Assembly (NCBI GenBank): GCA_014740375.1
Contig: GCA_014740375.1_3041.1
DNA: 64,000 bases
Source of the DNA: a phage
Strand: one strand, 5' to 3'
The notes beneath the pieces are model-generated. The model did no database searches. It was not told the origin of the DNA and saw only the letters and a list, made by a program, of their open reading frames with translations. Made by a program: the position numbers and the translations under genes. Positions within the stretch are counted from its first letter, which is position 1; each line of letters begins with the position of its first letter. Shown here piece by piece: positions 29,610 through 54,649 of this stretch.

Positions 29610-31002
<1,393 letters not shown>

Positions 31003-31006
<4 letters not shown>

Positions 31007-31233
31007 TTATTTTTCTCAACCAATGATTGAATATAATCATGCAGGTCTTTAGATGCTTTACCCCACTTATTTTGGTATTCATTTTTAAGATTAGCACGTG
31101 ATTGAGCTAATAAAACATCATTAGTTGGAGGTAAAGATTCTAATCGTTGAATCTGACGTCCATAAATCATTGCTGCCATCTCTGATTCATAAATCAATCC
31201 TTTGAGATGTTCAAATTGATGCCATGAAATCAT
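31003..31233 (-). CDS. Hypothetical protein
   Basis: 76-aa ORF. Confidence 0.5.
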
Positions 31234-31529
31234 TTACATTTATCCTCTTTTAACTCTTGACGATAATAACATATCATAGTTTTCTGGTCATGTACATATC
31301 GTTTTACATCATTAAGCCAAATACGAAATTCCTGAGAATCTTCAAATGGCATACCGACCCAAGCTTTACCATCAATAACTTTAACTTGCCAAGATAGTTT
31401 GGCTTCGTCATATGACTTTATTTGCACAGGCCAATTAGGATGAACTGTTTCTTTCTTTACTTCTAGAGGCTTTGTAGAACAACCAACTAGAAGACCAATA
31501 GATAATATTACTGCTGATAGTTTAATCAT
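31230..31529 (-). CDS. Outer-membrane spanin-like lipoprotein (o-spanin candidate)
   Basis: Signal peptide with lipobox LVGC-S (MIKLSAVILSIGLLVGCSTK); start overlaps stop of upstream i-spanin-like ORF. Confidence 0.65.
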   Translation of the reverse strand: MIKLSAVILSIGLLVGCSTKPLEVKKETVHPNWPVQIKSYDEAKLSWQVKVIDGKAWVGMPFEDSQEFRIWLNDVKRYVHDQKTMICYYRQELKEDKCK

Positions 31530-31879
31530 TTAGAAAGGTCCTGGATGTCTTCTGCGAACTTGTTGAAGGAGTTGTTGATTTGTTTTTCAACCAATCCTGG
31601 CTTATGAGCCACCACATCCGCCTTCTTTGCGTCTTTGCGCAGTTTTTCATTTTCACGCTCAATAGCAGCAATCGCCTCACGATTTTTATTATTCATCGCA
31701 TCAATATAATTATACTGAATTCGCAAATTATTTAATGCTAAGGCGTTTTCATTGGCCGTTTTTGTAATTTCTACAACAGACGTTTCTAATCTTTCAATTT
31801 TATTTTTTAAAATTAAAGAAGTTCCGCCCAATGCAATTACAATTAATAACAAGCCTGCTGTCGTATTACTTAATTGCAT
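31526..31879 (-). CDS. Inner-membrane spanin-like protein (i-spanin candidate)
   Basis: N-terminal transmembrane helix followed by coiled-coil-like periplasmic region; coupled to lipoprotein gene. Confidence 0.65.
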   Translation of the reverse strand: MQLSNTTAGLLLIVIALGGTSLILKNKIERLETSVVEITKTANENALALNNLRIQYNYIDAMNNKNREAIAAIERENEKLRKDAKKADVVAHKPGLVEKQINNSFNKFAEDIQDLSK

Positions 31880-32376
31880 AAAGTTTTAATAACCTCTATA
31901 ATATCGTCTTGAGAAAGACCGTTAATTAAAATATGATGTTCCGCCGGAGATTTAGAAATTTTAAAGCATGCCGCAACATCTTCTGCCATATCTGATGCGC
32001 TACGATTTGGATTACTAATTCCAAGACGATGTTTTCCCGTTAAAGGATTAACGATAATATAGCATTTGCAGCTATTGATATGAACATTGGGTTGAGTCTG
32101 ATTAATGAACACTTCACAATCATACTTAGCGAGTTGATTTTCTAAAAAGACTTTCATCTCTTCAACCGCATCAGGAAGCATATCACGGGCTTGCTCAAGA
32201 CGACGATTTCGATATTCTTTAATGGTCGTTTTCCGCTTGACTTGCTTAGCTAAATCTTTCTTAAGATCGGTGATATATCCAACTCGACGATTTCCTTTGA
32301 ATACAGAAATCCCATCTGTAGTATCACCGTATGCTTCAACGACCATTTCAGTAGTAATAAGTTGTAAATCCATCAT
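31870..32376 (-). CDS. alc: Alc (host transcription elongation inhibitor)
   Basis: 168 aa (167 from second Met); T4 position upstream of the pseT block; own early promoter. Confidence 0.75.
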   Translation of the reverse strand: MMDLQLITTEMVVEAYGDTTDGISVFKGNRRVGYITDLKKDLAKQVKRKTTIKEYRNRRLEQARDMLPDAVEEMKVFLENQLAKYDCEVFINQTQPNVHINSCKCYIIVNPLTGKHRLGISNPNRSASDMAEDVAACFKISKSPAEHHILINGLSQDDIIEVIKTLCN

Positions 32377-32404
32377 AAAGTCCTCATGTTATGTCAGTAA
32401 GACT

Positions 32405-32434
32405 ACTATAACACAACACGAGGGACTTGTAAAC
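32405..32434 (-). promoter_or_regulatory. T4-type early promoter for alc
   Basis: Minus strand GTTTAC, 18 bp, TATAGT; 54-bp cassette near-identical to 17058-17111. Confidence 0.6.
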
Positions 32435-32437
32435 AGC

Positions 32438-34025
<1,588 letters not shown>

Positions 34026-34033
34026 AATAAAAT

Positions 34034-34054
34034 GGGCCTTGCGGCCCACTCCTT
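34034..34054 (-). promoter_or_regulatory. Hairpin-bridged (split) ribosome binding site of denA
   Basis: AAGGAG, then 14-nt GGGCC-GCAA-GGCCC hairpin, then 8 nt, then ATG; hairpin would bring the Shine-Dalgarno to about 9 nt from the start. Confidence 0.5.
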
Positions 34055-35231
34055 AAAAGTATTTTTTAAAACTCATCATAACTTTATCATCAACATCATT
34101 ATCAATCTGTGCAACAAGATAAGATGACAGTTCTACTTCTTGTGGCGCGGATTGAACATTATCAGAATTAAGATATTCACGAATCCAAGGATATGGATGT
34201 TTAACCGGAGCATCGGTAATTGGGCATGGAAGACCGCACTGTTTCATACGAGATACAGTTAAGTAATCAATAAAGCTCCACATGCTATTTGTATTTAATC
34301 CAGGAACATCGCCATCTTTAAATAAATGAACTGCCCAATCTTTTTCTTGGCGGTTAACTTCCATGAAAATATCAACTGCTTCTTGTTCACACTCTTGAGC
34401 AATTTTAACCCATTGACCGCCATCAGTACCAGATTGAAGTTGACGAATAATATATTGGGTGCCTTTAAGGTGAAGCTGTTCATCGCGTGCAATGAACTTC
34501 ATAATCTTGGCATTACCTTCCATGATTTCCATGTTCTTATGGAAGTTAAAGGTACATGCGAAAGATACATAAAAACGAATAGCTTCCAATGCGTTGATTA
34601 CATGCAAACAGAGGTAAAGAGATTTCATTAGCTCACGCTTCCAATATGTCTCATGCTCAATAGCATCTTCAATAACGTCTTCGTCTGCATTAATTTCTTT
34701 TTGGTATTCGATATCAGCTTTAGCGTTTTCCCAATAACGAGTTTTAATCAGAACATCATCATAATAACGTCCAATGGATTCAGCACGTTTCATAATAGCT
34801 TCATCTAATACAATTTCATCAAATACCTTCGATGGATCAGTATAAAGATTTCGCATGATATGAGTATATGAACGACTGTGAATAGTTTCACTAAAAGTCC
34901 ATGTAGCAACCCATGTATCAAGACTTGGGTCTGAAATTAATGACATAAGTACAGCAGATGGCGCGCGACCCTGAATACTATCTAAAAGTGATTGATACTT
35001 CAAGTTGTTAGTAAAAATATTTTGCTGATACTGAGGAAGCTTATTAAACTGTGCAGCATCCATCATCAAGTTTACTTCTTCAGGACGCCAGAAAAATGAT
35101 AATTGCTTTTCGGTTAAATCTTCAAAAACTTTATGACGTTGAATATCATAACGCGCAATACCAAGACCTGAACCAAAAAACATAGGTTCTTTTAAAACAT
35201 CAACTGGATTTGTATTAAAAACTGTGCTCAT
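34053..35231 (-). CDS. nrdB: Ribonucleotide reductase small subunit (uninterrupted)
   Basis: 392 aa continuous ORF with di-iron ligands; no intron interruption. Confidence 0.93.
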   Translation of the reverse strand: MSTVFNTNPVDVLKEPMFFGSGLGIARYDIQRHKVFEDLTEKQLSFFWRPEEVNLMMDAAQFNKLPQYQQNIFTNNLKYQSLLDSIQGRAPSAVLMSLISDPSLDTWVATWTFSETIHSRSYTHIMRNLYTDPSKVFDEIVLDEAIMKRAESIGRYYDDVLIKTRYWENAKADIEYQKEINADEDVIEDAIEHETYWKRELMKSLYLCLHVINALEAIRFYVSFACTFNFHKNMEIMEGNAKIMKFIARDEQLHLKGTQYIIRQLQSGTDGGQWVKIAQECEQEAVDIFMEVNRQEKDWAVHLFKDGDVPGLNTNSMWSFIDYLTVSRMKQCGLPCPITDAPVKHPYPWIREYLNSDNVQSAPQEVELSSYLVAQIDNDVDDKVMMSFKKYF

Positions 35232-35282
35232 AAATTTTCCGCTTAGTTAATAGTTGGTGACTCGTCCGTGAGTCAAATTATA

Positions 35283-37547
35283 TCATAATTTACAGGATGA
35301 ACAATCTTCAGCTTTTGGAGTTTCTATTTCATAATCATCAGTACCAGAACCATCGCGGGTATTATGATAATAGAAATTTTTTCCGCCAAAATACCAAAAA
35401 TACAAAAGGTCATCAATCATTATTGACATTGGAACCTTGCCTTTAGGGAAGATTTGGGGGTCATAGTATGTATTCGCCGAAGCTGATTGACATACCCATT
35501 TCAGCATAATAGCTACCTGCGTAAGATAAGGTTTATTACCTTTCTTAGCTAATTTCCATGTATAATCATAGAGGTCTATGTTATGCTCAATATTGGGCAC
35601 GACTTGATTAAAGGAGCCCTCTTTTGATTCTTTAACAGAGACTGGTCCACGTGGAGGCTCGATACCGTTTGTACTGTTAGAAACTTGGGAAGATGACTCA
35701 CATGGCATAAGTGCTGATAATGTGCTATTACGGATGCCAAAGAGCTTAAGGTCTTCCCGCAGCGACGACCAGTCACAAACGTATTTTGGAGCTGCGATTT
35801 GGTCAATCTTTTTATTGTACCAGTCGATAGGTAATTCGCCTCTAGACCAACGAGTGTCTGAATAATATTCGCAAGGTCCTTTTTCTTTGGCGAGCTTAAT
35901 GGATGCTTTAATGAGTCCATACTGTAATCTCTCAAATAGTTCATGTGTTAAATCGTTAGCATCTTCATAAGAAGCAAAGTTACTTGCCAGCCAAGCTGCA
36001 TAGTTAGTAACACCTACACCGAGGTTACGACGCTTTTTAGCTTTTTCTGCTTCAGGAACTGGATATCCTTGGTAATCCAAAAGATTATCAAGAGCACGAA
36101 CTTGGACTTCTGCCAATTCATTAATTTTATCTTGGTCTTGCCAGTCAAAATTATCCAGTACGAATGCAGAGAGAGTACACAATCCAATTTCAGCATCAGG
36201 ACTATTCACATCATTTGTTGGAATAGCAATTTCACAGCACAAGTTACTCTGACGAATAGGTGCCTTTTCACGAATAAACGGAGTATAGTTATTCGTATTA
36301 TCAATGAACTGTACATAAATTCTTGCTGTTCCTGAGCGTTCAGTCATGAGCAATTCAAATAGTTCACGGGCTTTAATACGCTTTTTACGAATATTAGGGT
36401 CTTTTTCTGCTGCTTCGTATAATTCACGGAAACGGTCTTGGTCTTTAAAATAAGAATAATAAAGCTCGCCACCCATTTCATGCGGACTGAACAAAGTAAT
36501 GTAATCGTTCTTTCCGAATCGTTCCATCATCAAATCATTCAGCTGAACACCATAATCCATATGACGAATGCGGTTTTCTTCTACGCCTTTGTTATTTTTC
36601 AAAACGAGAAGATTTTCAACTTCCAAATGCCAAATAGGATAATAAGCAGTAGCAGCGCCGCCACGAATTCCACCCTGTGAACATGATTTAACTGCAGTCT
36701 GAAAATGTTTCCAAAAAGGAATAACACCAGTATGGCGTACTTCACCCATGCCAATCTTAGAACCTTCGGCACGAATCATACCAACGTTAATACCAATTCC
36801 AGCGCGTTTAGAGATATATTCAACAATTGAAGCGGAAGCCTTATTAATAGACTTTAATGAATCACCTGCCTCAATAACAACGCATGAACTAAACTGTCGA
36901 GTCGGAGTACGACAACCAGCCATAATAGGAGTTGGCAGTGAAATCTGTCGAGTAGATACTGCTTCATAAAAACGGATAACATGTTTTAATCTATCAACAG
37001 GTTCATCTTGATGCAGTGCCATTCCAATAGCCATAAATGCAAACTGTGGAGTTTCATAAATTTGACCGGTGGTTTTATCTTTGACTAGATATTTTTCTTT
37101 TAATTGCATCGCTCCGGAATAAGTAAATTCCATATCCCGCTCGTGCTTAATTTTTGATTCTAAAAATGTAATTTCTTCTGCTGAATATTTTGACAACAAT
37201 TCAGGGTCGTATTTACCTTCATTTACACAGTAAGAAATATGGTCAATAAATGAACGCGGTTCATACTGCCCATAAACATGCTTACGAAGAGCAAACATTA
37301 AACAACGTGCAGCTACATATTGGTAATCAGGCTCTTCAACCGAAATAGAATTCGCAGCGGCCTTAATGACAATAGTCTGAATATCATCAGTTGTCATTCC
37401 ATCACGGAGATAAGATTTAATATTTTCATATAATTCATAAGGATCTACTGATGTTCCCTCAGCTGCCCAAGATAAAACTTTAATAATTTTTTGTGGGTCA
37501 AAGCTCTGAGAAACACCACTACTTTTGATAACATTAATTAATTGCAT
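35283..37547 (-). CDS. nrdA: Ribonucleotide reductase large subunit
   Basis: 754 aa; class Ia RNR. Confidence 0.95.
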   Translation of the reverse strand: MQLINVIKSSGVSQSFDPQKIIKVLSWAAEGTSVDPYELYENIKSYLRDGMTTDDIQTIVIKAAANSISVEEPDYQYVAARCLMFALRKHVYGQYEPRSFIDHISYCVNEGKYDPELLSKYSAEEITFLESKIKHERDMEFTYSGAMQLKEKYLVKDKTTGQIYETPQFAFMAIGMALHQDEPVDRLKHVIRFYEAVSTRQISLPTPIMAGCRTPTRQFSSCVVIEAGDSLKSINKASASIVEYISKRAGIGINVGMIRAEGSKIGMGEVRHTGVIPFWKHFQTAVKSCSQGGIRGGAATAYYPIWHLEVENLLVLKNNKGVEENRIRHMDYGVQLNDLMMERFGKNDYITLFSPHEMGGELYYSYFKDQDRFRELYEAAEKDPNIRKKRIKARELFELLMTERSGTARIYVQFIDNTNNYTPFIREKAPIRQSNLCCEIAIPTNDVNSPDAEIGLCTLSAFVLDNFDWQDQDKINELAEVQVRALDNLLDYQGYPVPEAEKAKKRRNLGVGVTNYAAWLASNFASYEDANDLTHELFERLQYGLIKASIKLAKEKGPCEYYSDTRWSRGELPIDWYNKKIDQIAAPKYVCDWSSLREDLKLFGIRNSTLSALMPCESSSQVSNSTNGIEPPRGPVSVKESKEGSFNQVVPNIEHNIDLYDYTWKLAKKGNKPYLTQVAIMLKWVCQSASANTYYDPQIFPKGKVPMSIMIDDLLYFWYFGGKNFYYHNTRDGSGTDDYEIETPKAEDCSSCKL

Positions 37548-37864
37548 AAGTCCTCAACTTGAAAATCGTCTTTAAACAATCGGTTAACTATATGAGCTAT
37601 TATATCACCATGACACGGCTTTGGTTTACATGTGCATCCTAGCCTCATTCCACGTAAAGGCTCTAAATGTGCTTTAGTTATTTCTCCGGATTTAATTCGA
37701 CGTATAAAATCTTTTTTGAATAATTCAATGGCAGCCTCCCGGCTGCCAGCATCTTTACCGACGTAATTTCCCCAAAATGTACCGCGGTGAATATTAACAT
37801 CAAAGTCGGATTTGTATTTATTCACTACCCGGCATAGACGGCCCACGCTGGAATAATTCGTCAT
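37538..37864 (-). CDS. Hypothetical Cys/His-containing protein
   Basis: 108-aa ORF between td and nrdA. Confidence 0.5.
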
Positions 37865-38093
37865 ATTGTTTTTCCGTTAATACAGTAATATCATAGTAAC
37901 AATCGGAAGAAGTTTTAACTGTGGAAATTTTATTATCAAAATACTCACGAGTCATTTTATGAGTATAGTATTTTTTACCATAAATGGTAATAGGCTGTTC
38001 TGGTCCTGGAACTTCTAACTCGCTTGGGTTAGGAAGTGTAAAAAGAACAACACCAGAAGTATCTTTAAATCGTAAAATCATATATCCTCGCAA
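37818..38093 (-). CDS. Hypothetical protein
   Basis: 91-aa ORF, out-of-frame overlap with the downstream ORF. Confidence 0.5.
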
Positions 38094-38101
38094 TAATAAA
38101 A

Positions 38102-38962
38102 TTACACCGCCATCTTTCCTTTAATAGGAGGGTGTGATTCATAGTTGTTAAGAATAAAATTATGCGGCTTTGCGAATTGACTCAACCAAAATACCTGCGA
38201 TTCTGTGTCCCATTCATCAAATTCATCTGGAAATTTTAATTGTAATTCGCATAAATCCATAGGTTCACGACGCAAAATTTCTTTACATTGTTCTACGTGA
38301 TTCATATAGATATGAGTATTACCGCCAGAAAATATCAAATCTCCCGGAATAAGATTACACATCTTAGCTACAATATGAACTAACGTAGCATATGATGCAA
38401 TATTAAATGGAAGACCGAGGAAAACATCTACTGATCGTTGATACCACTGAAGGTCAAGGTATCCATTACGAACATTAAATTGATAGAACATATGACAAGG
38501 CGGTAATGCCATATATTTAAGTTCAGCTGGATTCCATGCAGAAACAATTTGACGCCTATCATTTGGCAGTTTTTTAATACGATCAATAACTTCTATAATT
38601 TGGTCTACACCGCCAAAATCACGCCACTGTTTTCCATAAATTGGACCAAGTTCACCGCTATGGTATCCTAAATCTTTTGCTTGATTTTCGTAATTTTCAT
38701 CCCAGACTGTTTTGCCTTGGATTAACGAATCATGCTGAATTAATCGTAAATCATTGACATTTGTGCTTCCTGACAAAAACCATATTAACTCAGCAATGCA
38801 AGCTTTCCAGGCGAGCTTTTTAGTTGTTACCGCAGGAAAACCTTTAGTTAAATCCCAACGTAATTTAGTACCGAACAAAGCAATTGTTCCTGTGCCTGTT
38901 CGGTCATCGGTTTCATAGCCATTTTCAAAAATGTCTTTAATTAAATCTTGGTATTGTTTCAT
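38102..38962 (-). CDS. td: Thymidylate synthase (uninterrupted)
   Basis: 286 aa continuous ORF starting [12 protein letters not shown]; no group I intron. Confidence 0.95.
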
Positions 38963-38978
38963 TTAGTACCTTATATAA

Positions 38979-39002
38979 ATTATAATACATTTTATGAAGC
39001 TA
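38979..39002 (-). promoter_or_regulatory. Promoter-like element upstream of td (imperfect MotA box plus TATAAT)
   Basis: Minus strand TAGCTTCA then 10 bp then TATAAT in the 45-bp td leader; box mismatch and short spacing make it weak. Confidence 0.3.
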
Positions 39003-39007
39003 AATAA

Positions 39008-40202
<1,195 letters not shown>

Positions 40203-40213
40203 ATTATCTCCTA

Positions 40214-40546
40214 TTAAAAAGGATCAGGAACATATCCGCTAGCTTTAATCATTTTAATTAACGTTAACATTCCTTTGTTAACTGCTCGTGAGATTTCATC
40301 AAAAACTTCATCACTAAAAAGTTCTAACACGCCCTTCTGAACTTTTAATTTACAGCCAACAATTTCTTCATCGCCTATAGTAAATTCATTACCACCAATT
40401 CCACCGAAAAACTTAATTACACCAGTTAACTGTCTTCCACGAGAATATGGGTCGTGTGATAAAGTAATATGAGTCACCCCGGGTACAGTTTTAAATTGGC
40501 AGCGAATATTTACTTGTGAAATTCCAGTTACATGAATGTCAGACAT
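40214..40546 (-). CDS. Hypothetical protein (frd.2 position)
   Basis: 110-aa ORF. Confidence 0.55.
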   Translation of the reverse strand: MSDIHVTGISQVNIRCQFKTVPGVTHITLSHDPYSRGRQLTGVIKFFGGIGGNEFTIGDEEIVGCKLKVQKGVLELFSDEVFDEISRAVNKGMLTLIKMIKASGYVPDPF

Positions 40547-40856: not shown

Positions 40857-41117
40857 TTATTTTTGAATTTTATCAAGCCACTTACCAAGCTTAATCATTT
40901 CTTTAGTAGCCTTTTCCATACTTCTGAACTTAACCAATAGAGGATAGGTATCGACACCCATAACTAAGCTAGTTACAAGACTGTGTTCACCCACAAGCCA
41001 TAACGAATACGTTTGAATATCGAGCCCGTAATTTCTGTCTTTATGGACCCGTACACCCATCACTTCAAATTTCTCACTAGCTTTTTCTACCGCATCCAGG
41101 AAATCATCTTTAGTCAT
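40857..41117 (-). CDS. Hypothetical protein (86 aa; alternative start 41159)
   Basis: ORF immediately downstream of the 126-aa ORF. Confidence 0.45.
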   Translation of the reverse strand: MTKDDFLDAVEKASEKFEVMGVRVHKDRNYGLDIQTYSLWLVGEHSLVTSLVMGVDTYPLLVKFRSMEKATKEMIKLGKWLDKIQK

Positions 41118-41118
41118 A

Positions 41119-41499
41119 TTAGGCCTTAAAAGTTTTTCGCAAAAGTTCAATGATTTCATCTACATTGTTTTCGTCAACAATGCAGTGAATTTTTGTTACG
41201 CCAGAAACCTTGTCTTTGACTTCATCTTTTTCAGAAGTCGGTTCTTTATACTCACGAAAACAATGAAATTCGTCTTCGCAAATTTCTAAAAGTCTATCTT
41301 TGAGGTAAAAATGCTTTCCATTTGCGCATTCAATGTGTTTTACTGCTTTATATCCATTAGCGACGGAAACTTCTTTAACTTCAAACCATCCGCCATTATC
41401 TCGAATCGCTTTAACTATTGATGAATTAGAACGTGGGCTATAATTAATAAATGTATCAATAAGTCTTGGAACAAGCTCATACTTTTTACCGGTATACAT
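41119..41499 (-). CDS. Hypothetical protein
   Basis: 126-aa ORF. Confidence 0.5.
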   Translation of the reverse strand: MYTGKKYELVPRLIDTFINYSPRSNSSIVKAIRDNGGWFEVKEVSVANGYKAVKHIECANGKHFYLKDRLLEICEDEFHCFREYKEPTSEKDEVKDKVSGVTKIHCIVDENNVDEIIELLRKTFKA

Positions 41500-41544
41500 T
41501 ACGTTTTCCTCATTTTAATAGGGGCTGTAATAGCCCCTCGATAA

Positions 41545-41772
41545 TTATTGTTCAATCAGTCCCATGTAAAATTCTGCGTCTTCAGAATCCATGCCATCAC
41601 AGTATTCATTAGCCATAAAGCGGGTGAGATCTTCAAGAGGACCTTCAATAACGATTTGAATACTCCAAAACTTAGAATCTTGCACGCTTGTGATACTAAG
41701 TTCAGGATAACGATTACGAATAATCTCTTCAATATATTCAAAATCAACGATGTCAATATCAACTTTAGCCAT
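41545..41772 (-). CDS. Hypothetical acidic protein (75 aa)
   Basis: ATG at 41772 with GAGGA Shine-Dalgarno downstream of an early promoter; track extension to 41898 would include promoter and terminator. Confidence 0.55.
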
Positions 41773-41815
41773 ATTATTTTCCTCTTTAATCATCAGCAGT
41801 ATTGCCGATAGTTGT

Positions 41816-41845
41816 ATAGTACCATAGAAGGACAAGGATGTAAAC
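41816..41845 (-). promoter_or_regulatory. T4-type early promoter (cassette family B)
   Basis: Minus strand A/T-rich upstream tract, GTTTAC, 18 bp, TACTAT; flanks shared with 58928-58957 and 62736-62765. Confidence 0.55.
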
Positions 41846-41877
41846 CGTTTTGTGAAAAAAATTTTTGAAATAAAAAA

Positions 41878-41896
41878 GGGGACCTCTAGGGTCCCC
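41878..41896 (-). terminator. Rho-independent terminator of gene 32
   Basis: GGGGACC-loop-GGTCCCC followed by TTTTTTATTT on minus strand. Confidence 0.65.
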
Positions 41897-41918
41897 AATT
41901 AATTAGTAATATAATCTA

Positions 41919-42827
41919 TTAAAGGTCATTCAAAAGGTCATCCAGGTCCGTGTCATCAGCACTAGATGAACTGCCAGAGCTTGAGCTCATAAAATCATCT
42001 TCAGTTTTTGTATTGAAGTCATCAACATTGAATGCATCCAAATCATCAGCAACTTTATCAGCTTTCTTAGCAGCAGTTGCTGCGGCACCACCCATAGCAG
42101 CAGTTCCCATAACTTGACTGAACTTAGTGCTCAGTTCTTCAAACGATTTGAATTTATCTTTAGAAGTCATTTCAGAAAGGTCAACCATTTGTTCGAACAG
42201 TTCTTTCTGGAAAGATTCATCGTCAATGTTTGGAATCGCAGATTGATTCAGGAATTTAGATTCGTCGTAGTTACTAAATCCAGAAACCTGTTTAACTTTC
42301 AGTACAAAGTTAGCACCTTCCCACGGACAAGTTACATCAACCGGAGTTTCACCCATTTCAACATCAACTGCAATCATCGCGTTGATTTTATCCCAGATTT
42401 TCTTACCGAAACGGTATTTAAATACTTTACCTTCGTTTTCTGGAGCAGCCGGGTCTTTTACTACAAGAATGTTAGCCCAGTAAGAAGTTTTACGTTTAAC
42501 AAGGCTGTACTCTTTATTGTCAGTGTTGTACAGATCATTTTTACTGATGTACTGACATACTGGACAAGAATCGTAATCACCGTGGGTAGATGAGCAATTT
42601 TCGATATACCATTTACCGTTTTTCTTGAAACCGTGATTTACAAGAATTGCGAATGGTGCTTGTTCATCATTTTTAGACGGAAGAAAACGAATTACTGCTT
42701 GACCGTTACCCGCATTGTCGAGTTTCAGTTTCCACTCGCCTTTATCTTCAGAAGAAAAACCACCTTTATTTCCAGCCAGTTTAGCCATTTGTGCAGCGAG
42801 TTCAGCAGTAGATTTACGTTTAAACAT
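41919..42827 (-). CDS. 32: Single-stranded DNA-binding protein gp32
   Basis: 302 aa; zinc-binding Cys/His cluster; acidic C-terminal tail. Confidence 0.95.
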
Positions 42828-42926
42828 TTTTATTTCCTTTTTAATTTAATTAACAGTTGGTGCTATGACGATGTATGACCTCATAGCTGGTCAGTGAGAT
42901 AATTATAATCTATTTATAATAAGCAA
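42828..42926 (-). promoter_or_regulatory. Gene 32 leader and promoter region
   Basis: Late promoter TATAAATA on minus strand (plus 42910-42917), adjacent TATAAT and MotA-box-like TTGCTTA, then A/U-rich leader TTAAATTAAAAAGGAAATAAAAATG. Confidence 0.55.
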
Positions 42927-43580
42927 TTAATACTTGCAAGATTTCACAGTTTCAATAAAAACATTTTTAGCTTTCTGTGAATCAATATTTAAAATTTTTC
43001 TATAAGCCTTTAACTTTATAGAATAATTATTCCAGACTAAATTATCAGTCTGTTCATCATGTTTATCAATTATATTTAAAAACGAATCAAGCAAGATAAA
43101 CGTTTCAAACGAAATTATATTCGACTGAAGCAGTTTAAAAATATAACTTGATTGAACCTTTGGATTATATTCAAAGATTTCTTTAAAAGCAGAAACTTCA
43201 ACTTTTTTACTAAAATAATAAATGTTGCGAATATCTTCTTCAAACTTAAATTTAATTTGCTTTAAGCGTCCGATATATTCACGATAAAACACAAGTGCAT
43301 CAGCGTCAGAGATGTCACCAATCCAAGCATCTTGGTTAGCAACCAAATTACTTATAAAAATTAAAGCAAGTTCCTTTAATTTATATTTTTCTGATAACTT
43401 CTGGAAAAAATACTTATCCCTTCGTTTTTGATAAGCGGCATCAGACACCCGCATGCACCAATTATACTTAATTACATCATACTTTCCATTCATATGTTGT
43501 TTTATCATTAAGTATAATTTATAAACTGATTTACCATCAATGTATCTTTCACCACCAGCAGGCATGCGGAGTTTAATCAT
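42927..43580 (-). CDS. 59: Helicase loader gp59
   Basis: 217 aa; T4 length and position directly upstream of gene 32. Confidence 0.9.
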   Translation of the reverse strand: MIKLRMPAGGERYIDGKSVYKLYLMIKQHMNGKYDVIKYNWCMRVSDAAYQKRRDKYFFQKLSEKYKLKELALIFISNLVANQDAWIGDISDADALVFYREYIGRLKQIKFKFEEDIRNIYYFSKKVEVSAFKEIFEYNPKVQSSYIFKLLQSNIISFETFILLDSFLNIIDKHDEQTDNLVWNNYSIKLKAYRKILNIDSQKAKNVFIETVKSCKY

Positions 43581-43915
43581 AGCAGAAAATCTAATGTATT
43601 AGTTTTTTCACAACGAACAACAGAAGGACGCAAAAGATTTTCGTCAATAGCTTCTGACTGAATTTTTTCAATTATACCCGAAGGAATAAATTTAGCAAAT
43701 TGAGTTTCAGGAATAGAGTTTTCTTCCAAGAATGCTGTCGTAGCTTCAAGATAACTCATTCCAAACTCTTCTACCATTTTTTCAATGATAAATCCATTTT
43801 CTTGACGATCAAGAAGCTTTGCAATTTCATCCTTTTCTTTCTTAAGGGAAAGTTCTTTTTCTGAAAGACCGGTCTCATCGACCGGACGAATATCATTTAG
43901 AGAAAACTGTGTCAT
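43577..43915 (-). CDS. 33: Late transcription co-activator gp33
   Basis: 112 aa from ATG at 43915 (track start is TTG). Confidence 0.8.
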   Translation of the reverse strand: MTQFSLNDIRPVDETGLSEKELSLKKEKDEIAKLLDRQENGFIIEKMVEEFGMSYLEATTAFLEENSIPETQFAKFIPSGIIEKIQSEAIDENLLRPSVVRCEKTNTLDFLL

Positions 43916-44162
43916 AAAGTTCAACTACCTCTTCAGTTTCAGCTTCAAACACATCACGGTTATCTTTATGATACAAAGCTAACAGACGATTAAACATCTT
44001 GCCATCAACACCAAGTTCATCTTTGGCACGAATTCGAATATCTTTAATCAGTTCATTATAACCGGAAATTTTCAGTTTATGATCAGATGCTTCTTTAATA
44101 AATTTAGCCAAGTCTTCGCCATGGATAGCTTCATCAAATTCAACCATTTCTTTTTTAGCCAT
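43893..44162 (-). CDS. dsbA: Double-stranded DNA-binding protein DsbA
   Basis: 89 aa; overlaps start of gene 33 as in T4. Confidence 0.75.
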   Translation of the reverse strand: MAKKEMVEFDEAIHGEDLAKFIKEASDHKLKISGYNELIKDIRIRAKDELGVDGKMFNRLLALYHKDNRDVFEAETEEVVELYDTVFSK

Positions 44163-44170
44163 TATTCACC

Positions 44171-45088
44171 TCAAAATTCATTAATGCTATTAGTTAATTT
44201 AGAAAGACCCGCTTTTACAAAATATGAATAAATTTTGCCACGCGGTGGTAATTTATATGAATTATAGTAATTCACAATGTTTGAAGCAATATTATCAGGA
44301 ATATAATCAAAATCAATTAGAACTAGATTTTCTTTATAACGATTATATTCAGATTCTGTGAGAAGCACCTTAGCTTGCTCACGGTCATTAGCAATAGCTT
44401 CAACGATTGAAGTTTTCATTGAAGGAGTTCGTTCACCTTCAACTTTGGTAAACCAAAAGTCAGATCGTACTTTAACTGAAGCAACGTTATCCTTTTTGTC
44501 GCCTTTAAGGATTTTAGTCATACAGTCAATTTCAGCAGAACCGCTTTTAATTTTAACCCATTTCTTGTGCATCGGCGACCATTGCTTAACATTTGGGTAT
44601 TTGTGAAGCTGTGTAAAGTCACCATCCGATGAAATGATTAAAATCTTGTGTCCTTCTAAAGAGAACTTTTTAACAAGAACAGCAATGTGGTCATCTGCTT
44701 CATACTTATCAATATCCATAACAATGTATGGCATATAAGCTTTCAATTCATCTATAACTTTATGGCTGGATTCAAAATAACCTTCCCAGTCCCAAGTAGA
44801 TTCTTCTCGTGCTTTTCCACGGTTTTTCTTGTAATAGTAAGCAAAATCACGACGCCAGTATCCAGATTTCGCATTATCAATACACAGTACAATTTTAGTG
44901 TATCCAAGCGTTTTTGCTTTTTTAACATTAAACTTAATTGAGTTCAATATCAAATGACGAACCATTGATAAATTAATTTTTTCTTTATCTGGGAAGTTTA
45001 CCAGAGCAGTTGAAAGCGCAATTTGACTAAAGTCAATGAAGCAAATTCCTTCTTTGTAATCTTCATCCAGCATCATTTCTAAATCCAT
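44171..45088 (-). CDS. rnh: RNase H (5'-3' exonuclease / flap endonuclease)
   Basis: 305 aa from MDLEMML; FEN-family acidic residues. Confidence 0.88.
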   Translation of the reverse strand: MDLEMMLDEDYKEGICFIDFSQIALSTALVNFPDKEKINLSMVRHLILNSIKFNVKKAKTLGYTKIVLCIDNAKSGYWRRDFAYYYKKNRGKAREESTWDWEGYFESSHKVIDELKAYMPYIVMDIDKYEADDHIAVLVKKFSLEGHKILIISSDGDFTQLHKYPNVKQWSPMHKKWVKIKSGSAEIDCMTKILKGDKKDNVASVKVRSDFWFTKVEGERTPSMKTSIVEAIANDREQAKVLLTESEYNRYKENLVLIDFDYIPDNIASNIVNYYNSYKLPPRGKIYSYFVKAGLSKLTNSINEF

Positions 45089-45117
45089 ATGAACCTCGTT
45101 CAATTAGTGAGATTTCT

Positions 45118-45147
45118 ATTATATACCATCCAAATCTTAAAGTAAAC
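45118..45147 (-). promoter_or_regulatory. Early promoter for rnh
   Basis: Minus strand GTTTAC, 18 bp, TATAAT, about 30 bp upstream of rnh ATG; divergent from the gene 34 late promoter. Confidence 0.5.
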
Positions 45148-45150
45148 AAG

Positions 45151-45158
45151 TATAAATA
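45151..45158 (+). promoter_or_regulatory. Late promoter (TATAAATA) for gene 34
   Basis: Exact TATAAATA 35 bp upstream of gene 34 ATG with GGAG Shine-Dalgarno. Confidence 0.65.
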
Positions 45159-45192
45159 CTTATTATTGAAAACACAATAGGAGCCCGGGAGA

Positions 45193-48100
45193 ATGGCCGA
45201 GATTAAAAGAAAGTTCAGAGCAGAAGATGGTCTGGACGCAGGTGGTGATAAAATAATCAACGTAGCTTTAGCTGATCGTACCGTAGGAACTGACGGTGTT
45301 AACGTTGATTACTTAATTCAAGAAAACACAGTTCAACAATATGATCCAACTCGTGGATATTTAAAAGATTTTGTAATCATTTATGATAACCGCTTTTGGG
45401 CTGCTATAAATGATATTCCAAAACCAGCAGGAGCTTTTAATAGCGGACGCTGGAGAGCATTACGTACAGATGCTAACTGGATTACGGTTTCATCTGGTTC
45501 ATATCAATTAAAATCTGGTGAAGCAATTTCGGTTAACACTGCAGCTGGAAATGACATTACGTTTACTTTACCGTCTTCTCCAATTGATGGTGATACTATC
45601 GTTCTCCAAGATATTGGAGGAAAACCTGGAGTTAACCAAGTTTTAATTGTAGCTCCAGTGCAAAGTATTGTAAACTTTAGAGGTGAACAGGTACGTTCAG
45701 TACTAATGACTCATCCAAAGTCACAGCTAGTTTTAATTTTTAGTAATCGTCTGTGGCAAATGTATGTTGCTGATTATAGTAGAGAAGCTGTAATTGTAAC
45801 ACCAGCGAATACTTATCAAGCGCAATCAAATGATTTTATCGTACGTAGATTTACTTCTGCTGCACCAATTAATGTTAAACTTCCAAGATTTGCTAATCAT
45901 GGCGATATTATTAATTTCGTTGATTTAGATAAACTGAATCCACTTTATCATACAATTGTTACTACATACGATGAAACGACTTCAGTACAAGAAGTTGGAA
46001 CTCATTCCATTGAAGGCCGTACATCGATTGACGGTTTCTTGATGTTTGATGATAATGAGAAATTGTGGAGATTGTTTGACGGTGACAGTAAAGCGCGTTT
46101 ACGCATTATAACGACTAATTCTAATATTCGTCCAAATGAAGAAGTCATGGTATTTGGTGCGAATAACGGAACAACTCAGACAATTGAACTTCAGCTTCCA
46201 ACTAATATTTCTGTTGGTGATACTGTTAAAATTTCCATGAATTACATGAGAAAAGGACAAACAGTTAAAATCAAAGCTGCCGGTGAAGATAAAATTGCTT
46301 CTTCAGTTCAATTACTGCAATTCCCAAAACGCTCAGAATATCCGCCTGAAGCTGAGTGGGTTACAGTTCAAGAATTAGTTTTTAATGGTGAAACTAATTA
46401 TGTTCCAGTTCTAGAGCTTGCATATATTGAAGATTCTGATGGAAAATACTGGGTTGTACAGCAAAATGTTCCAACCGTAGAAAGAGTAGATTCTTTAAAT
46501 GATTCTACTAGAGCAAGATTAGGCGTAATTGCTTTAGCTACACAAGCTCAAGCTAATGCCGATTTAGAAAATTCTCCACAAAAAGAATTAGCAATTACTC
46601 CAGAAACGTTAGCTAATCGTACTGCTACTGAAACTCGCAGAGGTATTGCAAGAATAGCAACTACTGCTCAAGTGAATCAGAACACCACATTCTCTTTTGC
46701 TGATGATATTATCATCACTCCTAAAAAGCTGAATGAAAGAACTGCTACAGAAACTCGCAGAGGTGTCGCAGAAATTGCTACGCAACAGGAAACTAATACA
46801 GGTACTGATGATACAACCATCATTACTCCTAAAAAGCTTCAAGCTCGTCAAGGTTCTGAATCATTATCTGGTATTGTAACTTTTGTATCTACTGCAGGTG
46901 CTACTCCAGCTTCTAGCCGTGAATTAAATGGTACGAATGTTTATAATAAAAACACTAATAATTTAGTTGTTTCGCCAAAAGCTTTGGATCAGTATAAAGC
47001 TACGCCTACTCAACAGGGTGCAGTAATTTTAGCAGTTGAAAGTGAAGTAATTGCTGGACAAAGTCAGCAAGGATGGGCAAATGCTGTTGTAACGCCAGAA
47101 ACGTTACATAAAAAGACATCAACTGATGGAAGAATTGGTTTAATTGAAATTGCTACGCAAAGTGAAGTTAATACAGGAACTGATTATACTCGTGCAGTCA
47201 CTCCTAAAACTTTAAATGACCGTAGAGCAACTGAAAGTTTAAGTGGTATAGCTGAAATTGCTACACAAGTTGAATTCGACGCAGGCGTCGACGATACTCG
47301 TATCTCTACACCATTAAAAATTAAAACCAGATTTAATAGTACTGATCGTACTTCTGTTGTTGCTCTATCTGGATTAGTTGAATCAGGAACTCTCTGGGAC
47401 CATTATACCCTTAATATTCTTGAAGCAAATGAGACACAGCGTGGTACACTTCGTGTAGCTACACAGGTTGAAGCTGCTGCAGGAACATTAGATAATGTTT
47501 TAATAACTCCTAAAAAGCTTTTAGGTACTAAATCTACTGAAGCACAGGAAGGTGTTATTAAAGTTGCAACTCAGTCTGAAACTGTGACTGGAACATCAGC
47601 AAATACTGCTGTATCTCCAAAAAATTTAAAATGGATTGTGCAGAGTGAACCTACCTGGGCAGCTACTACTGCGATAAGAGGTTTTGTTAAAACTTCATCT
47701 GGTTCAATTACATTCGTTGGTAATGATACAGTCGGTTCTACCCAAGATTTAGAACTGTATGAGAAAAATAGCTATGCAGTATCACCATATGAATTAAACC
47801 GTGTATTAGCAAATTATTTGCCGTTAAAAGCAAAAGCTGTAGATAGTAATTTATTGGATGGTCTAGATTCATCTCAGTTCATTCGTAGGGATATTGCACA
47901 GACGGTTAATGGTTCACTAACCTTAACCCAACAAACGAATCTGAGTGCCCCTCTTGTATCATCTAGTACTGCTACGTTTGGTGGTTCAGTTTCGGCAAAT
48001 AGTACATTAACTATTTCTAATACTGGAACAGCAACTCGTCTGATTTTTGAAAAAGGACCTCAAACTGGAACTAACCCAGCACAGACGATGACTATCAGAG

Positions 48101-49062
48101 TATGGGGAAATCAGTTTGGTGGCGGATCAGATACAACACGTTCTACTGTATTTGAAGTTGGTGATGAAACGTCTAATCATTTTTATTCTCAACGTAATAA
48201 AGATGGGAATATAGCGTTTAGCATTAATGGTACTGTAATGCCAATAAACATTAATGCTTCCGGTTTGATGAATGTGAATGGCGTTGCAACATTCGGTCGT
48301 TCAGTTACAGCCAATGGCGAATTCATTAGCAAGTCTGCAAATGCTTTCAGAGCAATTAATGGTGATTACGGATTCTTTATTCGCAATGATGCTGCTAACA
48401 CCTATTTTATGCTCACTGCATCGGGTGATCAGACTGGCGGATTTAATGGATTACGTCCTTTAGCTATTAATAATGCATCTGGTCAAGTAACGATCGGTGA
48501 AAGCTTAATCATTGCCAAAGGTGCTACTATAAATTCAGGTGGTTTAACTGTTAACTCGAGAATTCGTTCACAGGGCACTAAAACATCTGATTTATATACC
48601 CGCGTGCCAACATCTGATACTGTAGGATTCTGGTCAATTGACATTAATGATTCAGCCACTTATAATCAGTTCCCAGGTTATTTTAAAATGGTTGAAAAAA
48701 CTAATGAAGTGACTGGACTTCCATACTTAGAACGCGGTGAAGAAGTTAAATCTCCTGGTACATTGACTCAGTTTGGTAACACACTTGATTCGCTTTACCA
48801 AGATTGGATTACTTATCCAACGACGCCAGAAGCGCGTACCACTCGCTGGACACGTACATGGCAGAAAACCAAAAACTCTTGGTCAAGTTTTGTTCAGGTA
48901 TTTGACGGAGGTAACCCTCCACAACCATCTGATATCGGTGCTTTACCATCTGATAATGCCACAATGGGTAATCTTACTATTCGTGATTTCTTGCGAATTG
49001 GTAATGTTCGCATTATTCCTGACCCAGTGAATAAAACTGTTAAATTTGAATGGGTTGAATAA
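45193..49062 (+). CDS. 34: Long tail fibre proximal subunit gp34
   Basis: 1289 aa; internal repeats of ITPKKL ... ATE ... G ... IAT. Confidence 0.93.
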   Translation: MAEIKRKFRAEDGLDAGGDKIINVALADRTVGTDGVNVDYLIQENTVQQYDPTRGYLKDFVIIYDNRFWAAINDIPKPAGAFNSGRWRALRTDANWITVSSGSYQLKSGEAISVNTAAGNDITFTLPSSPIDGDTIVLQDIGGKPGVNQVLIVAPVQSIVNFRGEQVRSVLMTHPKSQLVLIFSNRLWQMYVADYSREAVIVTPANTYQAQSNDFIVRRFTSAAPINVKLPRFANHGDIINFVDLDKLNPLYHTIVTTYDETTSVQEVGTHSIEGRTSIDGFLMFDDNEKLWRLFDGDSKARLRIITTNSNIRPNEEVMVFGANNGTTQTIELQLPTNISVGDTVKISMNYMRKGQTVKIKAAGEDKIASSVQLLQFPKRSEYPPEAEWVTVQELVFNGETNYVPVLELAYIEDSDGKYWVVQQNVPTVERVDSLNDSTRARLGVIALATQAQANADLENSPQKELAITPETLANRTATETRRGIARIATTAQVNQNTTFSFADDIIITPKKLNERTATETRRGVAEIATQQETNTGTDDTTIITPKKLQARQGSESLSGIVTFVSTAGATPASSRELNGTNVYNKNTNNLVVSPKALDQYKATPTQQGAVILAVESEVIAGQSQQGWANAVVTPETLHKKTSTDGRIGLIEIATQSEVNTGTDYTRAVTPKTLNDRRATESLSGIAEIATQVEFDAGVDDTRISTPLKIKTRFNSTDRTSVVALSGLVESGTLWDHYTLNILEANETQRGTLRVATQVEAAAGTLDNVLITPKKLLGTKSTEAQEGVIKVATQSETVTGTSANTAVSPKNLKWIVQSEPTWAATTAIRGFVKTSSGSITFVGNDTVGSTQDLELYEKNSYAVSPYELNRVLANYLPLKAKAVDSNLLDGLDSSQFIRRDIAQTVNGSLTLTQQTNLSAPLVSSSTATFGGSVSANSTLTISNTGTATRLIFEKGPQTGTNPAQTMTIRVWGNQFGGGSDTTRSTVFEVGDETSNHFYSQRNKDGNIAFSINGTVMPININASGLMNVNGVATFGRSVTANGEFISKSANAFRAINGDYGFFIRNDAANTYFMLTASGDQTGGFNGLRPLAINNASGQVTIGESLIIAKGATINSGGLTVNSRIRSQGTKTSDLYTRVPTSDTVGFWSIDINDSATYNQFPGYFKMVEKTNEVTGLPYLERGEEVKSPGTLTQFGNTLDSLYQDWITYPTTPEARTTRWTRTWQKTKNSWSSFVQVFDGGNPPQPSDIGALPSDNATMGNLTIRDFLRIGNVRIIPDPVNKTVKFEWVE
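46560..47640 (+). repeat. Degenerate in-frame repeats within gene 34
   Basis: At least six copies of ~40-aa unit (x-TP-x-x-L-x-x-R-x-ATE-x-x-x-G-x-x-x-IAT-x-x-E) seen in translation. Confidence 0.6.
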
Positions 49063-49070
49063 GAGGTATT

Positions 49071-50186
49071 ATGGAAAAATTTATGGCAGAGTTTGGACAA
49101 GGATATGTCCAAACGCCATTTTTATCGGAAAGTAATTCAGTAAGATACAAAATAAGTATAGCGGGTTCTTGCCCGCTTTCTACTGCAGGACCATATGTTA
49201 AATTTCAAGATAATCCCGTAGGAAGTCAAACATTTAGCGCAGGCCTTCATTTAAGAGTTTTTGACCCTTCCACCGGAGCATTAGTTGATAGTAAGTCATA
49301 TGCTTTTTCGACTTCAAATGATACTACATCAGCTGCTTTTGTTAGTTTCATGAATTCTTTGACGAATAATCGAATTGTCGCTATATTAACTAGTGGAAAG
49401 GTTAATTTTCCTCCTGAAGTAGTATCTTGGTTAAGAACAGCAGGAACGTCTGCTTTTCCATCTGACTCTGTATTGTCAAGATTCGACGTATCATATGCTG
49501 CTTTTTATACTTCTTCTAAAAGAGCTATTGCATTAGAGCATGTTAAACTGAGTAATAGAAAAAGCACAGATGATTATCAAACTATTTTAGATGTTGTATT
49601 TGACAGTTTAGAAGACGTCGGAGCTACCGGGTTTCCAAGAAGAACGTATGAAAGCGTTGAGCAATTTATGTCAGCGGTTGGTGGAACTAATAACGAAATT
49701 GCAAGATTACCAACTTCAGCTGCTATAAGTAAACTCTCTGATTATAATTTAATTCCTGGTGACGTTCTTTATCTTAAAGCCCAGTTATATGCCGATGCTG
49801 ATTTACTTGCGCTTGGAACTACAAATATTTCAATTCGTTTTTATAATGCGTCGAATGGATATATTTCCTCGACACAAGCTGAGTTTACTGGACAGGCTGG
49901 GTCTTGGGAATTAAAGGAAGACTATGTAGTTGTTCCAGAAAATGCAGTTGGATTTACGATATATGCACAGAGAACTGCTCAAGCGGGACAAGGCGGTATG
50001 CGAAATTTAAGCTTTTCTGAAGTATCAAGAAATGGCGGAATTTCAAAACCTGCTGAATTTGGCGTCAATGGTATTCGCGTTAATTATATTTGTGAATCTG
50101 CTTCACCTCCGGATATAATGGTACTTCCTACGCAAGCATCGTCTAAAACTGGTAAAGTGTTTGGGCAAGAATTTAGAGAAGTATAA
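49071..50186 (+). CDS. 35: Long tail fibre hinge protein gp35
   Basis: 371 aa; T4 position. Confidence 0.88.
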   Translation: MEKFMAEFGQGYVQTPFLSESNSVRYKISIAGSCPLSTAGPYVKFQDNPVGSQTFSAGLHLRVFDPSTGALVDSKSYAFSTSNDTTSAAFVSFMNSLTNNRIVAILTSGKVNFPPEVVSWLRTAGTSAFPSDSVLSRFDVSYAAFYTSSKRAIALEHVKLSNRKSTDDYQTILDVVFDSLEDVGATGFPRRTYESVEQFMSAVGGTNNEIARLPTSAAISKLSDYNLIPGDVLYLKAQLYADADLLALGTTNISIRFYNASNGYISSTQAEFTGQAGSWELKEDYVVVPENAVGFTIYAQRTAQAGQGGMRNLSFSEVSRNGGISKPAEFGVNGIRVNYICESASPPDIMVLPTQASSKTGKVFGQEFREV

Positions 50187-50190
50187 ATTG

Positions 50191-50210
50191 AGGGAGCCTT
50201 CGGGTTCCCT
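50191..50210 (+). terminator. Terminator-like hairpin after gene 35
   Basis: AGGGAGCC-TTCG-GGTTCCCT followed by TTTTCTTT. Confidence 0.55.
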
Positions 50211-50217
50211 TTTTCTT

Positions 50218-50225
50218 TATAAATA
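50218..50225 (+). promoter_or_regulatory. Late promoter (TATAAATA) for gene 36
   Basis: Exact TATAAATA 24 bp upstream of gene 36 ATG. Confidence 0.65.
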
Positions 50226-50248
50226 CTATTAAAATAAAGGGGCATACA

Positions 50249-54648: not shown

Positions 54649-54649
54649 A

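Follow-up and report, generated by a model that had tools for sequence, protein, structure and literature searches.

Layout of the gene 23 to rIIB segment

Phage T4 (NC_000866) carries an intron with I-TevI in td, an intron with a defective I-TevIII in nrdB, and the genes segD, segG, nrdB.1 and mobE, all of which raise the question of whether a relative with continuous td and nrdB genes lacks these elements and could receive them. We addressed this in a stretch of phage DNA of 64,000 nucleotides (the window). Alignment to T4 identified the 64-kb window as a Tequatrovirus segment that extends from gene 23 to rIIB, with the gene order and orientation of T4 and shared genes about 95-97% identical. 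Five T4 selfish elements, the td intron, the nrdB intron, mobE, segD and segG, were absent from the window by blastn against NC_000866, with clean breakpoints at 5 of 5 sites and junctions resolved to base level. Between 34053 and 38962 the ORF and alignment data ruled out both an intron and a homing endonuclease gene. Rfam at the gathering threshold returned 0 matches in the window and in T4 100000-149999, T4 introns included; because this positive control failed, Rfam was uninformative on introns and their absence is based on the alignments.

The layout of the window was that of T2 (AP018813), a phage poor in homing endonucleases that is the classical recipient when marker exclusion is studied in crosses with T4. 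T2 likewise has an intronless td of 861 nt, an intronless nrdB of 1179 nt, and 23/24, nrdA/nrdB and 32/59 gaps that measure 83, 51 and 99 bp and are almost the same in sequence. It also shares AAG at nrdB codon 42 (the MobE codon), the type of gene 32, one additional small ORF located between td and frd, and two full-length alt genes, the second of which is present in T4 only as remnants. Single blastn HSPs crossed 23/24, nrdB, nrdA/nrdB, td and 32/59 without insertions, and T2 was colinear with the window, unbroken, over 29766-40212 and 41126-50892 at an overall identity of about 94-96%. The window very probably represents a Tequatrovirus gene 23-rIIB segment with a T2-type endonuclease-poor layout, in which td and nrdB are uninvaded, the short intergenic regions are native and keep promoter and terminator motifs of their own, and segE is the only homing endonuclease gene. 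The original prediction had set this genome apart from T4 proper, which is true but trivial, as T2 shares the layout and in the phage database most junctions are uninterrupted (343/549 for td, ~62%, and 576/689 for nrdB, ~84%). The closest records over 34053-38962, vB_EcoM-S1P5QW (98.8%), MLF4, Sf22 and KIT03, aligned in one uninterrupted stretch and thus have the same intronless, mobE-less layout. No database record was identical to the window and the best match varied by part (95-98%), which is the usual Tequatrovirus mosaicism.

Homing endonuclease genes were screened using phmmer --max on 883 six-frame ORFs (at least 30 aa) with 12 T4 homing-endonuclease proteins as queries, a set that left out segB, segC, mobD, SegH and Hef. 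In these 883 ORFs no Seg, Mob or I-Tev homologue was detected except segE, and denA was the sole other match. As segE was the only homing-endonuclease match, the window holds no endonuclease remnants. The segE gene (6077-6694, plus strand) stands free between inh and uvsW and encodes a GIY-YIG homing endonuclease; it starts 49 bp after inh and ends 2 bp before uvsW. It was full length, matched Pfam PF19835 SegE_GIY-YIG (E=6.6e-9) and PHROG 314 (homing endonuclease), and its product was identical to T4 SegE at 204 of 205 aa. T2 has no segE and this is its sole homing-endonuclease difference from the window, where segE is accompanied by a uvsW 5' end of T4 type rather than T2 type. It had been proposed that the window has only one freestanding GIY-YIG gene. 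This held for homing endonuclease genes, but denA (33615-34049, minus strand; Pfam GIY-YIG, E=6e-6; phmmer to T4 DenA, E=4.7e-95) is a second gene with a GIY-YIG domain, encoding endonuclease II and not a homing endonuclease. Several small ORFs are present in the window and not in T4 (39008-39379, 39957-40546, 40857-41159 and 30704-31006). As candidate novel homing endonucleases the ORFs at 39008-39379, 39957-40202, 40214-40546, 40857-41159 and 30704-31006 were rejected; they fall in PHROG/DUF families of unknown function, and neither Pfam nor PHROGs placed a nuclease domain in them.

The two intergenic regions that carry seg genes in T4 were short, as predicted (~80 and ~100 bp without a homing endonuclease gene), and the placing of T4 seg genes at these two sites agrees with the T4 annotation and PMC2988022, which have segD at 23/24 and segG at 32/59. 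The 3' part of gene 23, which encodes the major capsid protein (12-932, plus strand; T4 105579-106521 by blastn, 97.8%; gene start outside the window), is followed by an 83-bp gap (933-1015) and gene 24 (capsid vertex protein; 1016-2299, plus strand), the latter assigned by T4 blastn/annotation. This gap was identical to T2 over the aligned part and carried a hairpin resembling a terminator (GGGACCTTCGGGTCCC with T's after it) as well as a late-promoter-like motif, TATAAATA. The T4 gap is 812 bp and holds segD (about 790 bp extra); no SegD homologue was found by phmmer in any frame of the window, the segE ORF excepted. Gene 32, encoding the ssDNA-binding protein (41919-42827, minus strand), was a T2-like allele, differing from T2 at 0-2 positions per 60 nt; it is the target of SegG (PMC2988022). 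Between gene 32 and gene 59 (helicase loader; 42927-43580, minus strand; T4 blastn/annotation) lies a gap of 99 bp (42828-42926) with its aligned stretch identical to T2 and with the promoter-like motifs TATAAATA and TATAAT. T4 has 623 bp extra here, holding segG, and a SegG homologue was not found in the 883 six-frame ORFs (phmmer).

The td gene and its empty I-TevI site

The td gene (thymidylate synthase, 286 aa; 38102-38962, minus strand) was uninterrupted in the ORF list and in the alignment to T4, and relative to the spliced T4 exons exactly the 1017-bp intron with I-TevI was missing, as had been predicted. The breakpoint at window 38413/38414 corresponds to T4 143546/144564 (blastn, with the junction checked base by base). 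I-TevI needs 5'-CNNNG-3' (native CAACG) 23/25 nt upstream of the insertion site, with C1 and G5 as the critical bases of the cleavage motif (PMC5009752). In the window the empty homing site (-27 to +20; 38394-38440, minus strand) has its insertion point between 38414 and 38413, and CAACG was found on the minus strand at 38436-38440, corresponding to -27 to -23 and to the canonical spacing. Six differences from T4 lie within -27 to +20 (-22, -6, -4, +3, +6 and +18) and all are synonymous. Four to five of the six, among -22, -6, +3, +6 and +18, carry the T2 base, and position -4 is C in the window, T in T2 and G in T4. The half-site from +1 to +20, with 3 synonymous differences from T4, matched T2 and exon II of phage vB_EcoM_ESCO58 exactly, an indirect sign that it may suit the DNA-binding domain of I-TevI. 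The sequence TTCCTCGGT at the td site was common to the window and phage PhiZZ23. The alignment to T4 proposed as a check of this homing site thus returned a target that looks intact, with CAACG present and the downstream half-site of T2.

Outside the site the td allele was less typical. A patch of synonymous differences at 38450-38480 (-37 to -67; 9/31 nt), just upstream of the cleavage motif, was unlike T4, T2, PhiZZ23, AV120 and LF82-2, and relative to T2 the C-terminal segment was also different. Over the 200-bp td junction only 4 database records reached an identity of 99% or more, and S1P5QW was 100% identical to the window there. This dense, lineage-restricted patch and the additional changes at -6 and -4 raise an alternative in which the td allele is resistant to I-TevI, the synonymous changes having been selected or gained by repair from a diverged template, and the phage is a poor recipient. 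Endonuclease-bearing phages are known to protect their own target sites by polymorphisms (PMC2790892). However, C1, G5 and the entire CAACG were intact and correctly spaced, the patch lies outside the mapped -27 to +20 site, -6 and -4 are also variable in T2, a proven recipient, and the downstream half-site is that of T2 and ESCO58 exon II. I-TevI is also tolerant of sequence change (PMC5009752; Bryk et al. 1993, as cited in PMC2988022). We consider resistance very unlikely. The same holds for the view that homing-endonuclease attack left the allele as an escape variant or as a scar of repair; the patch could then be a short gene-conversion tract, in which an unsampled diverged template repaired an I-TevI break without intron gain, and could render the lineage of the window partly resistant.

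The reading of the td site as an intact, uninvaded target is supported by vB_EcoM_ESCO58 (OM386666), a close relative that was 97.4% identical over 34053-38962. ESCO58 shares with the window its td allele type, down to the variant C-terminal segment, and likewise has neither an nrdB intron nor mobE. Unlike the window it has a td intron with I-TevI, identical to that of T4 at 1014/1017 positions. Its exon II flank matched the window exactly and its proximal exon I was T4-like, which fits the bias of I-TevI co-conversion to exon I (PMC2988022). The ESCO58 td is the invaded counterpart of the window td allele.

nrdB, its MobE target and the nrdA/nrdB gap

The nrdB gene (34053-35231, minus strand; ORF list and T4/T2 alignments) was also uninterrupted and encodes 392 aa, as in T2, compared to 388 aa in T4. 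At fine scale it was a T2/T4 mosaic, with the first 120 nt exactly those of T2 and the 3' half mostly T4-like. The predicted absence of the intron with I-TevIII was borne out, exactly the 598-bp intron being missing relative to T4, with a breakpoint at window 34555/34558 corresponding to T4 138457/139058 (blastn). The empty intron site and I-TevIII homing-site region (34536-34585, minus strand) has its insertion point between 34556 and 34555 and differed from T4 at two synonymous positions, -5 and -2, the latter common to T2. I-TevIII cleaves at -14/-16 (PMC1865063), and the window sequence surrounding these positions was identical to T4. I-TevIII is defective in T4 (PMC2790892), and mobility of the nrdB intron out of T4 therefore depends on MobE acting in trans.

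The nrdB stretch that corresponds to the MobE target (nt 114-156, site definition from PMC2790892) lies at 35076-35118 on the minus strand, with the nick positions nt 122-126 at window 35106-35110. Phages without mobE have AAG at nrdB codon 42 and the FFWRPEE block (PMC2790892). The window had codon 42 AAG, an intact FFWRPEE block (TTTTTCTGGCGTCCTGAAGAA in this region) and no mobE in the gap, the features of a MobE-sensitive, T2-type nrdB, and its target region differed from T2 at two positions (nt 129 and 132). The alignment proposed as a check of nrdB therefore gave the same answer as at td, a T2-type nick site. The nrdA/nrdB intergenic region (35232-35282) was only 51 bp, near-identical to T2, with TATAAT directly after the nrdA stop codon, compared to 700 bp in T4 (139720-140419). 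Neither nrdB.1 nor mobE was present in this gap by blastn against T4, and phmmer detected no MobE homologue in the window. The original prediction was right in naming the td and nrdB introns and the seg genes as absent but missed nrdB.1 and mobE, although their place lay within the interval that it described. Upstream are nrdA (754 aa; 35283-37547; ORF list and blastn), nrdA.1 (DUF4326; 37538-37864) and nrdA.2 (DUF5496; 37818-38093), the last two assigned by Pfam and all on the minus strand.

An empty site could also result if the td and nrdB alleles had formerly been invaded and the introns and endonuclease genes since lost by precise deletion. The life-cycle model predicts such intron and endonuclease losses (PMC5009752, PMC2988022), and nrdB exon 2 was identical to T4 for at least 70 nt past the insertion site. 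This identity is uninformative because proximal exon 2 of T2 is also identical to T4. Recent intron loss should leave donor-type (T4-type) co-converted flanks, but td differed from T4 by 6 synonymous changes in -27 to +20 and by 9 further ones in -37 to -67, and the nrdB exon 1 flank was T2-type. In addition, no endonuclease remnants were found by phmmer in the 883 six-frame ORFs, and the intergenic regions equal the native ones of T2. We rejected recent precise intron loss as the flanks were not donor-type, and regard past loss in general as very unlikely.

Expected homing in mixed infections

Taken as a T2-type genome with uninvaded alleles, the window lacks the introns and the segD and segG genes and so could receive them by homing. 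The recipient role that had been proposed is supported at the sequence level by targets that look intact, a T2-like gene 32 and the invaded td of ESCO58. The segD part of that proposal is doubtful, as SegD reportedly fails to mobilize its own gene (Sokolov et al. 2018, as cited in PMC10448857).

In T4 x T2 crosses the T2 markers at these sites are replaced (PMC2988022, PMC2790892), and from this published work we infer how cleavage and homing would proceed in the window phage. Co-infection with a T4-type phage would be expected to let I-TevI cut td at CAAC|G (23/25 nt upstream of the empty insertion site), MobE nick nrdB at codon 42 and SegG cut gene 32. Donor-templated repair would then bring in segG, the td intron and mobE, the last often accompanied in trans by the nrdB intron, and flanking donor polymorphisms would be copied along with them, resulting in marker exclusion. 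At inh/uvsW, by contrast, the window phage would itself be the donor, passing segE to segE-less phages such as T2.

The intronless, endonuclease-poor layout is ordinary and already described; classical T2 and the majority of sequenced relatives have it too. That introns and seg/mob genes are patchily distributed among T-even phages has been on record for decades, as has the part that T2 and other endonuclease-poor genomes play as marker-exclusion recipients (PMC2988022, PMC2790892, PMC10448857). The finding has little significance beyond annotation, and its practical value lies in annotating this segment correctly, with td and nrdB intronless, segD, segG and mobE absent, and segE present. In homing experiments the phage could be used both as a recipient strain resembling T2 and to donate segE, and together with ESCO58 it provides a natural before/after example of td intron invasion.

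Intron insertion sites in td and nrdB

The window was colinear with T4 (NC_000866) in the same orientation, starting inside gene 23 (12-932) and ending in rIIB (63632 onward). The original prediction that td and nrdB are uninterrupted was borne out, as td (286 aa, 38102-38962) and nrdB (392 aa, 34053-35231), both on the minus strand, were unbroken ORFs and the window was continuous at base level across both T4 exon junctions. The blastn alignments to T4 broke at window 38413/38414 versus T4 143546/144564 in td and at window 34555/34558 versus T4 138457/139058 in nrdB. In the alignment to T4 the window lacked exactly the td intron (1017 bp, with I-TevI) and the nrdB intron (598 bp, with truncated I-TevIII). 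Rfam models applied at the gathering threshold to T4 100000-149999 did not detect the td or nrdB group I introns of T4 itself; default-threshold covariance-model scanning is unusable for excluding ORF-containing phage introns.

The prediction had proposed aligning both genes to the intron-containing T4 alleles, and both target sites looked intact. In td the I-TevI motif CAACG, whose critical positions are C1 and G5 (PMC5009752), was found at -27 to -23 from the intron insertion site (38436-38440), giving the canonical 23/25-nt spacing. Between -27 and +20 the window differed from T4 by six synonymous changes: at -22, -6, +3, +6 and +18 it carried the base of T2 (AP018813), and at -4 the base was C in the window, T in T2 and G in T4. 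PhiZZ23 had the same TTCCTCGGT in td as the window. A dense synonymous patch was observed at 38450-38480 (minus strand, 10-40 nt upstream of CAACG), where 9/31 nt differed and T4, T2, PhiZZ23, AV120 and LF82-2 all agreed against the window. Only 4 records in the database reached 99% identity or more over the 200-bp td junction query, and an unsampled allele may have been the source of the patch, as a short conversion tract. A td allele this unlike five others might resist cleavage, but the patch is outside the mapped homing site, and neither the critical motif nor its spacing is altered, making resistance very improbable. In the Tequatrovirus-related td alleles of AV120 and LF82-2, YQRS is encoded by other codons (CAA AGA AGT) that turn CAACG into CAAAG and also change several spacer and half-site positions; judged by sequence, reduced I-TevI sensitivity is more plausible for alleles of this type than for that of the window.

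Phage vB_EcoM_ESCO58 (OM386666), 97.4% identical to the window over the region, carried a window-type td gene with an intron identical to that of T4 at 1014/1017 positions. On the exon II side its flank was identical to the window and on the proximal exon I side it was T4-like, which matches the published bias of I-TevI co-conversion towards exon I (PMC2988022). ESCO58 appears from its sequence to be a natural precedent for the td intron in a window-type td allele. It also shared with the window a variant thymidylate synthase C-terminus (~38135-38265 in the 3' part of td), in which ~40 aa differed from the KELCELVISGLPYKFRYLSTKEQLKYVLKLRPKDFVLNNYVS variant of T4 and T2 and which looks like a swapped segment. 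Compared with E. coli ThyA, the T4 enzyme carries an insertion in this region.

In nrdB the I-TevIII cleavage positions, -14/-16 (PMC1865063), lay in T4-identical sequence, with synonymous differences at -5 and -2. The nick made by MobE in T2 nrdB falls at nt 122-126, within codon 42, which is AAG in all phages without mobE and lies beside a conserved FFWRPEE block (PMC2790892); the window had AAG and an intact block, with nt 129 and 132 unlike those of T2. The gene targeted by SegG, gene 32, was T2-like (0-2 differences from T2 in each 60 nt). Overall nrdB was a fine-scale mosaic: nt 1-120 were identical to T2, ~180-420 were T4-like, ~480-675 T2-like and exon 2 T4-like. A hypervariable stretch at aa ~160-200 (~34630-34750) had a 4-aa length difference from T4, and sites at which T4 was unlike both T2 and the window clustered in three places: the MobE target, this stretch and the sequence immediately upstream of the intron site.

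Homing endonuclease genes and other differences from T4

The 23/24 gap (933-1015) measured 83 bp and the 32/59 gap (42828-42926) 99 bp, close to the ~80 and ~100 bp anticipated; the T4 gaps are ~790 bp longer with segD and 623 bp longer with segG, respectively. The seg positions originally given for T4 matched the T4 annotation and the table of Edgell et al. 2010 (PMC2988022). The prediction was right on the introns and seg genes but overlooked a further absence within 34053-38962, as the nrdA/nrdB gap (35232-35282) was 51 bp while T4 has 700 bp with nrdB.1 and the HNH endonuclease gene mobE.

A single freestanding GIY-YIG gene had been reported, and segE (6077-6694, between inh and uvsW) was indeed the sole homing endonuclease gene found, matching Pfam SegE_GIY-YIG and a PHROG homing-endonuclease family with a product identical to T4 SegE at 204/205 aa. 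Overlooked was the Pfam GIY-YIG domain of denA (33615-34049), which encodes endonuclease II rather than a homing endonuclease. Twelve T4 Seg, Mob and I-Tev proteins were searched against all 883 six-frame ORFs of at least 30 aa, and no endonuclease genes or fragments besides segE were found. Of six T4 endonuclease genes in the interval (segD, segE, I-TevIII, mobE, I-TevI and segG) the window retained segE only. Recent and precise loss of the introns from the window alleles is unlikely given this lack of remnants, td flanks that are not donor-type and a T2-type nrdB exon 1 flank. Beside segE, the first ~130 nt of uvsW (6697-6830) were T4-type, while T2, without segE, differed at many synonymous sites. 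Co-conversion of the flank together with segE would give such a pattern, which also fits segE having been inherited jointly with a self-protective polymorphism in its target.

Small ORFs of the window missing from T4 contained no nuclease domains. A 123-aa ORF (39008-39379, phrog_1928, no Pfam match) lay between td and frd, which overlap in T4 without an intervening ORF; T2 and ESCO58 have a 115-aa ORF there. Four more that T4 lacks at these positions, 39957-40202 (phrog_3183), 40214-40546 (DUF7247), 40857-41159 (phrog_4423) and 30704-31006 (phrog_2364), were not nuclease-like. As in T2, tandem full-length alt-like ADP-ribosyltransferase genes were present (17111-19168 and 19172-21268, 685 and 698 aa), whereas T4 has alt.-1 and alt.-2 as the only remnants of the second copy. 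At 51831-55476, neither the distal part of gene 37 (whose product is 1242 aa) nor gene 38 (263 aa) matched T4 by blastn, and from the sizes this looks like a T2-type gp38 adhesin, not a T4-type gp38 chaperone. The hoc product (3913-5337) was 474 aa versus 376 aa in T4, and overlapping blastn HSPs there suggest an extra internal repeat or domain.

T2-type configuration and its frequency

T2 had the layout of the window at all five sites (23/24, nrdB, nrdA/nrdB, td and 32/59), with gaps of 83, 51 and 99 bp, a td of 861 nt and an nrdB of 1179 nt, and aligned in single HSPs over 29766-40212 and 41126-50892. The three intergenic sequences were nearly identical, sharing a terminator-like hairpin and TATAAATA in the 23/24 region, TATAAT directly following the stop codon of nrdA, and promoter-like motifs ahead of gene 32. 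The TATAAT and T2-like intergenic regions fit the published observation that phages without mobE retain the middle promoter of nrdB, either at the 3' end of nrdA or in the intergenic region (PMC2790892). The only homing-endonuclease-related difference was segE, absent from T2. These data confirmed that the window has the well-known T2-type configuration, which is not new.

Many Tequatrovirus genomes were 97-98.8% identical over 34053-38962, including vB_EcoM-S1P5QW, MLF4, Sf22 and KIT03, each in a single unbroken alignment. In the rest of the window the best match changed from part to part (95-98%), which is the mosaicism usual for the genus. About 500-600 Tequatrovirus-level records matched the region. 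The td junction was uninterrupted in 343/549 records matched by the 200-bp window query (62%) and the nrdB junction in 576/689 matched by a 120-bp query (84%). The T4 td intron matched 260 records (197 near full length), the nrdB intron 191 (118 near full length, some from other genera), nrdB.1 plus mobE 143 (20 near full length), segD 55, segG 142 and segE 167. Measured against ~500-600 records, each T4 element is a minority trait. Homing endonuclease genes make up ~11% of T4 coding sequence and T2 has clearly fewer (PMC10448857); T4 is an outlier, in line with the literature.

Predicted homing in mixed infection

If a T4-type donor co-infected, the predicted targets would be td for cutting by I-TevI, nrdB for nicking by MobE and gene 32 for cutting by SegG. 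Recombinational repair would then bring in the td intron, mobE and segG together with flanking donor sequence. Because T4 I-TevIII is defective, the nrdB intron would often arrive in trans with mobE. SegD reportedly does not promote homing of its own gene (Sokolov et al. 2018, cited in PMC10448857). At inh/uvsW the roles would be reversed, with the window phage as segE donor. T2 marker exclusion rests on endonuclease cutting and repair of this kind (PMC2988022, PMC2790892), and the alignments support the prediction that this intronless, seg-poor genome would be a potential recipient for homing.
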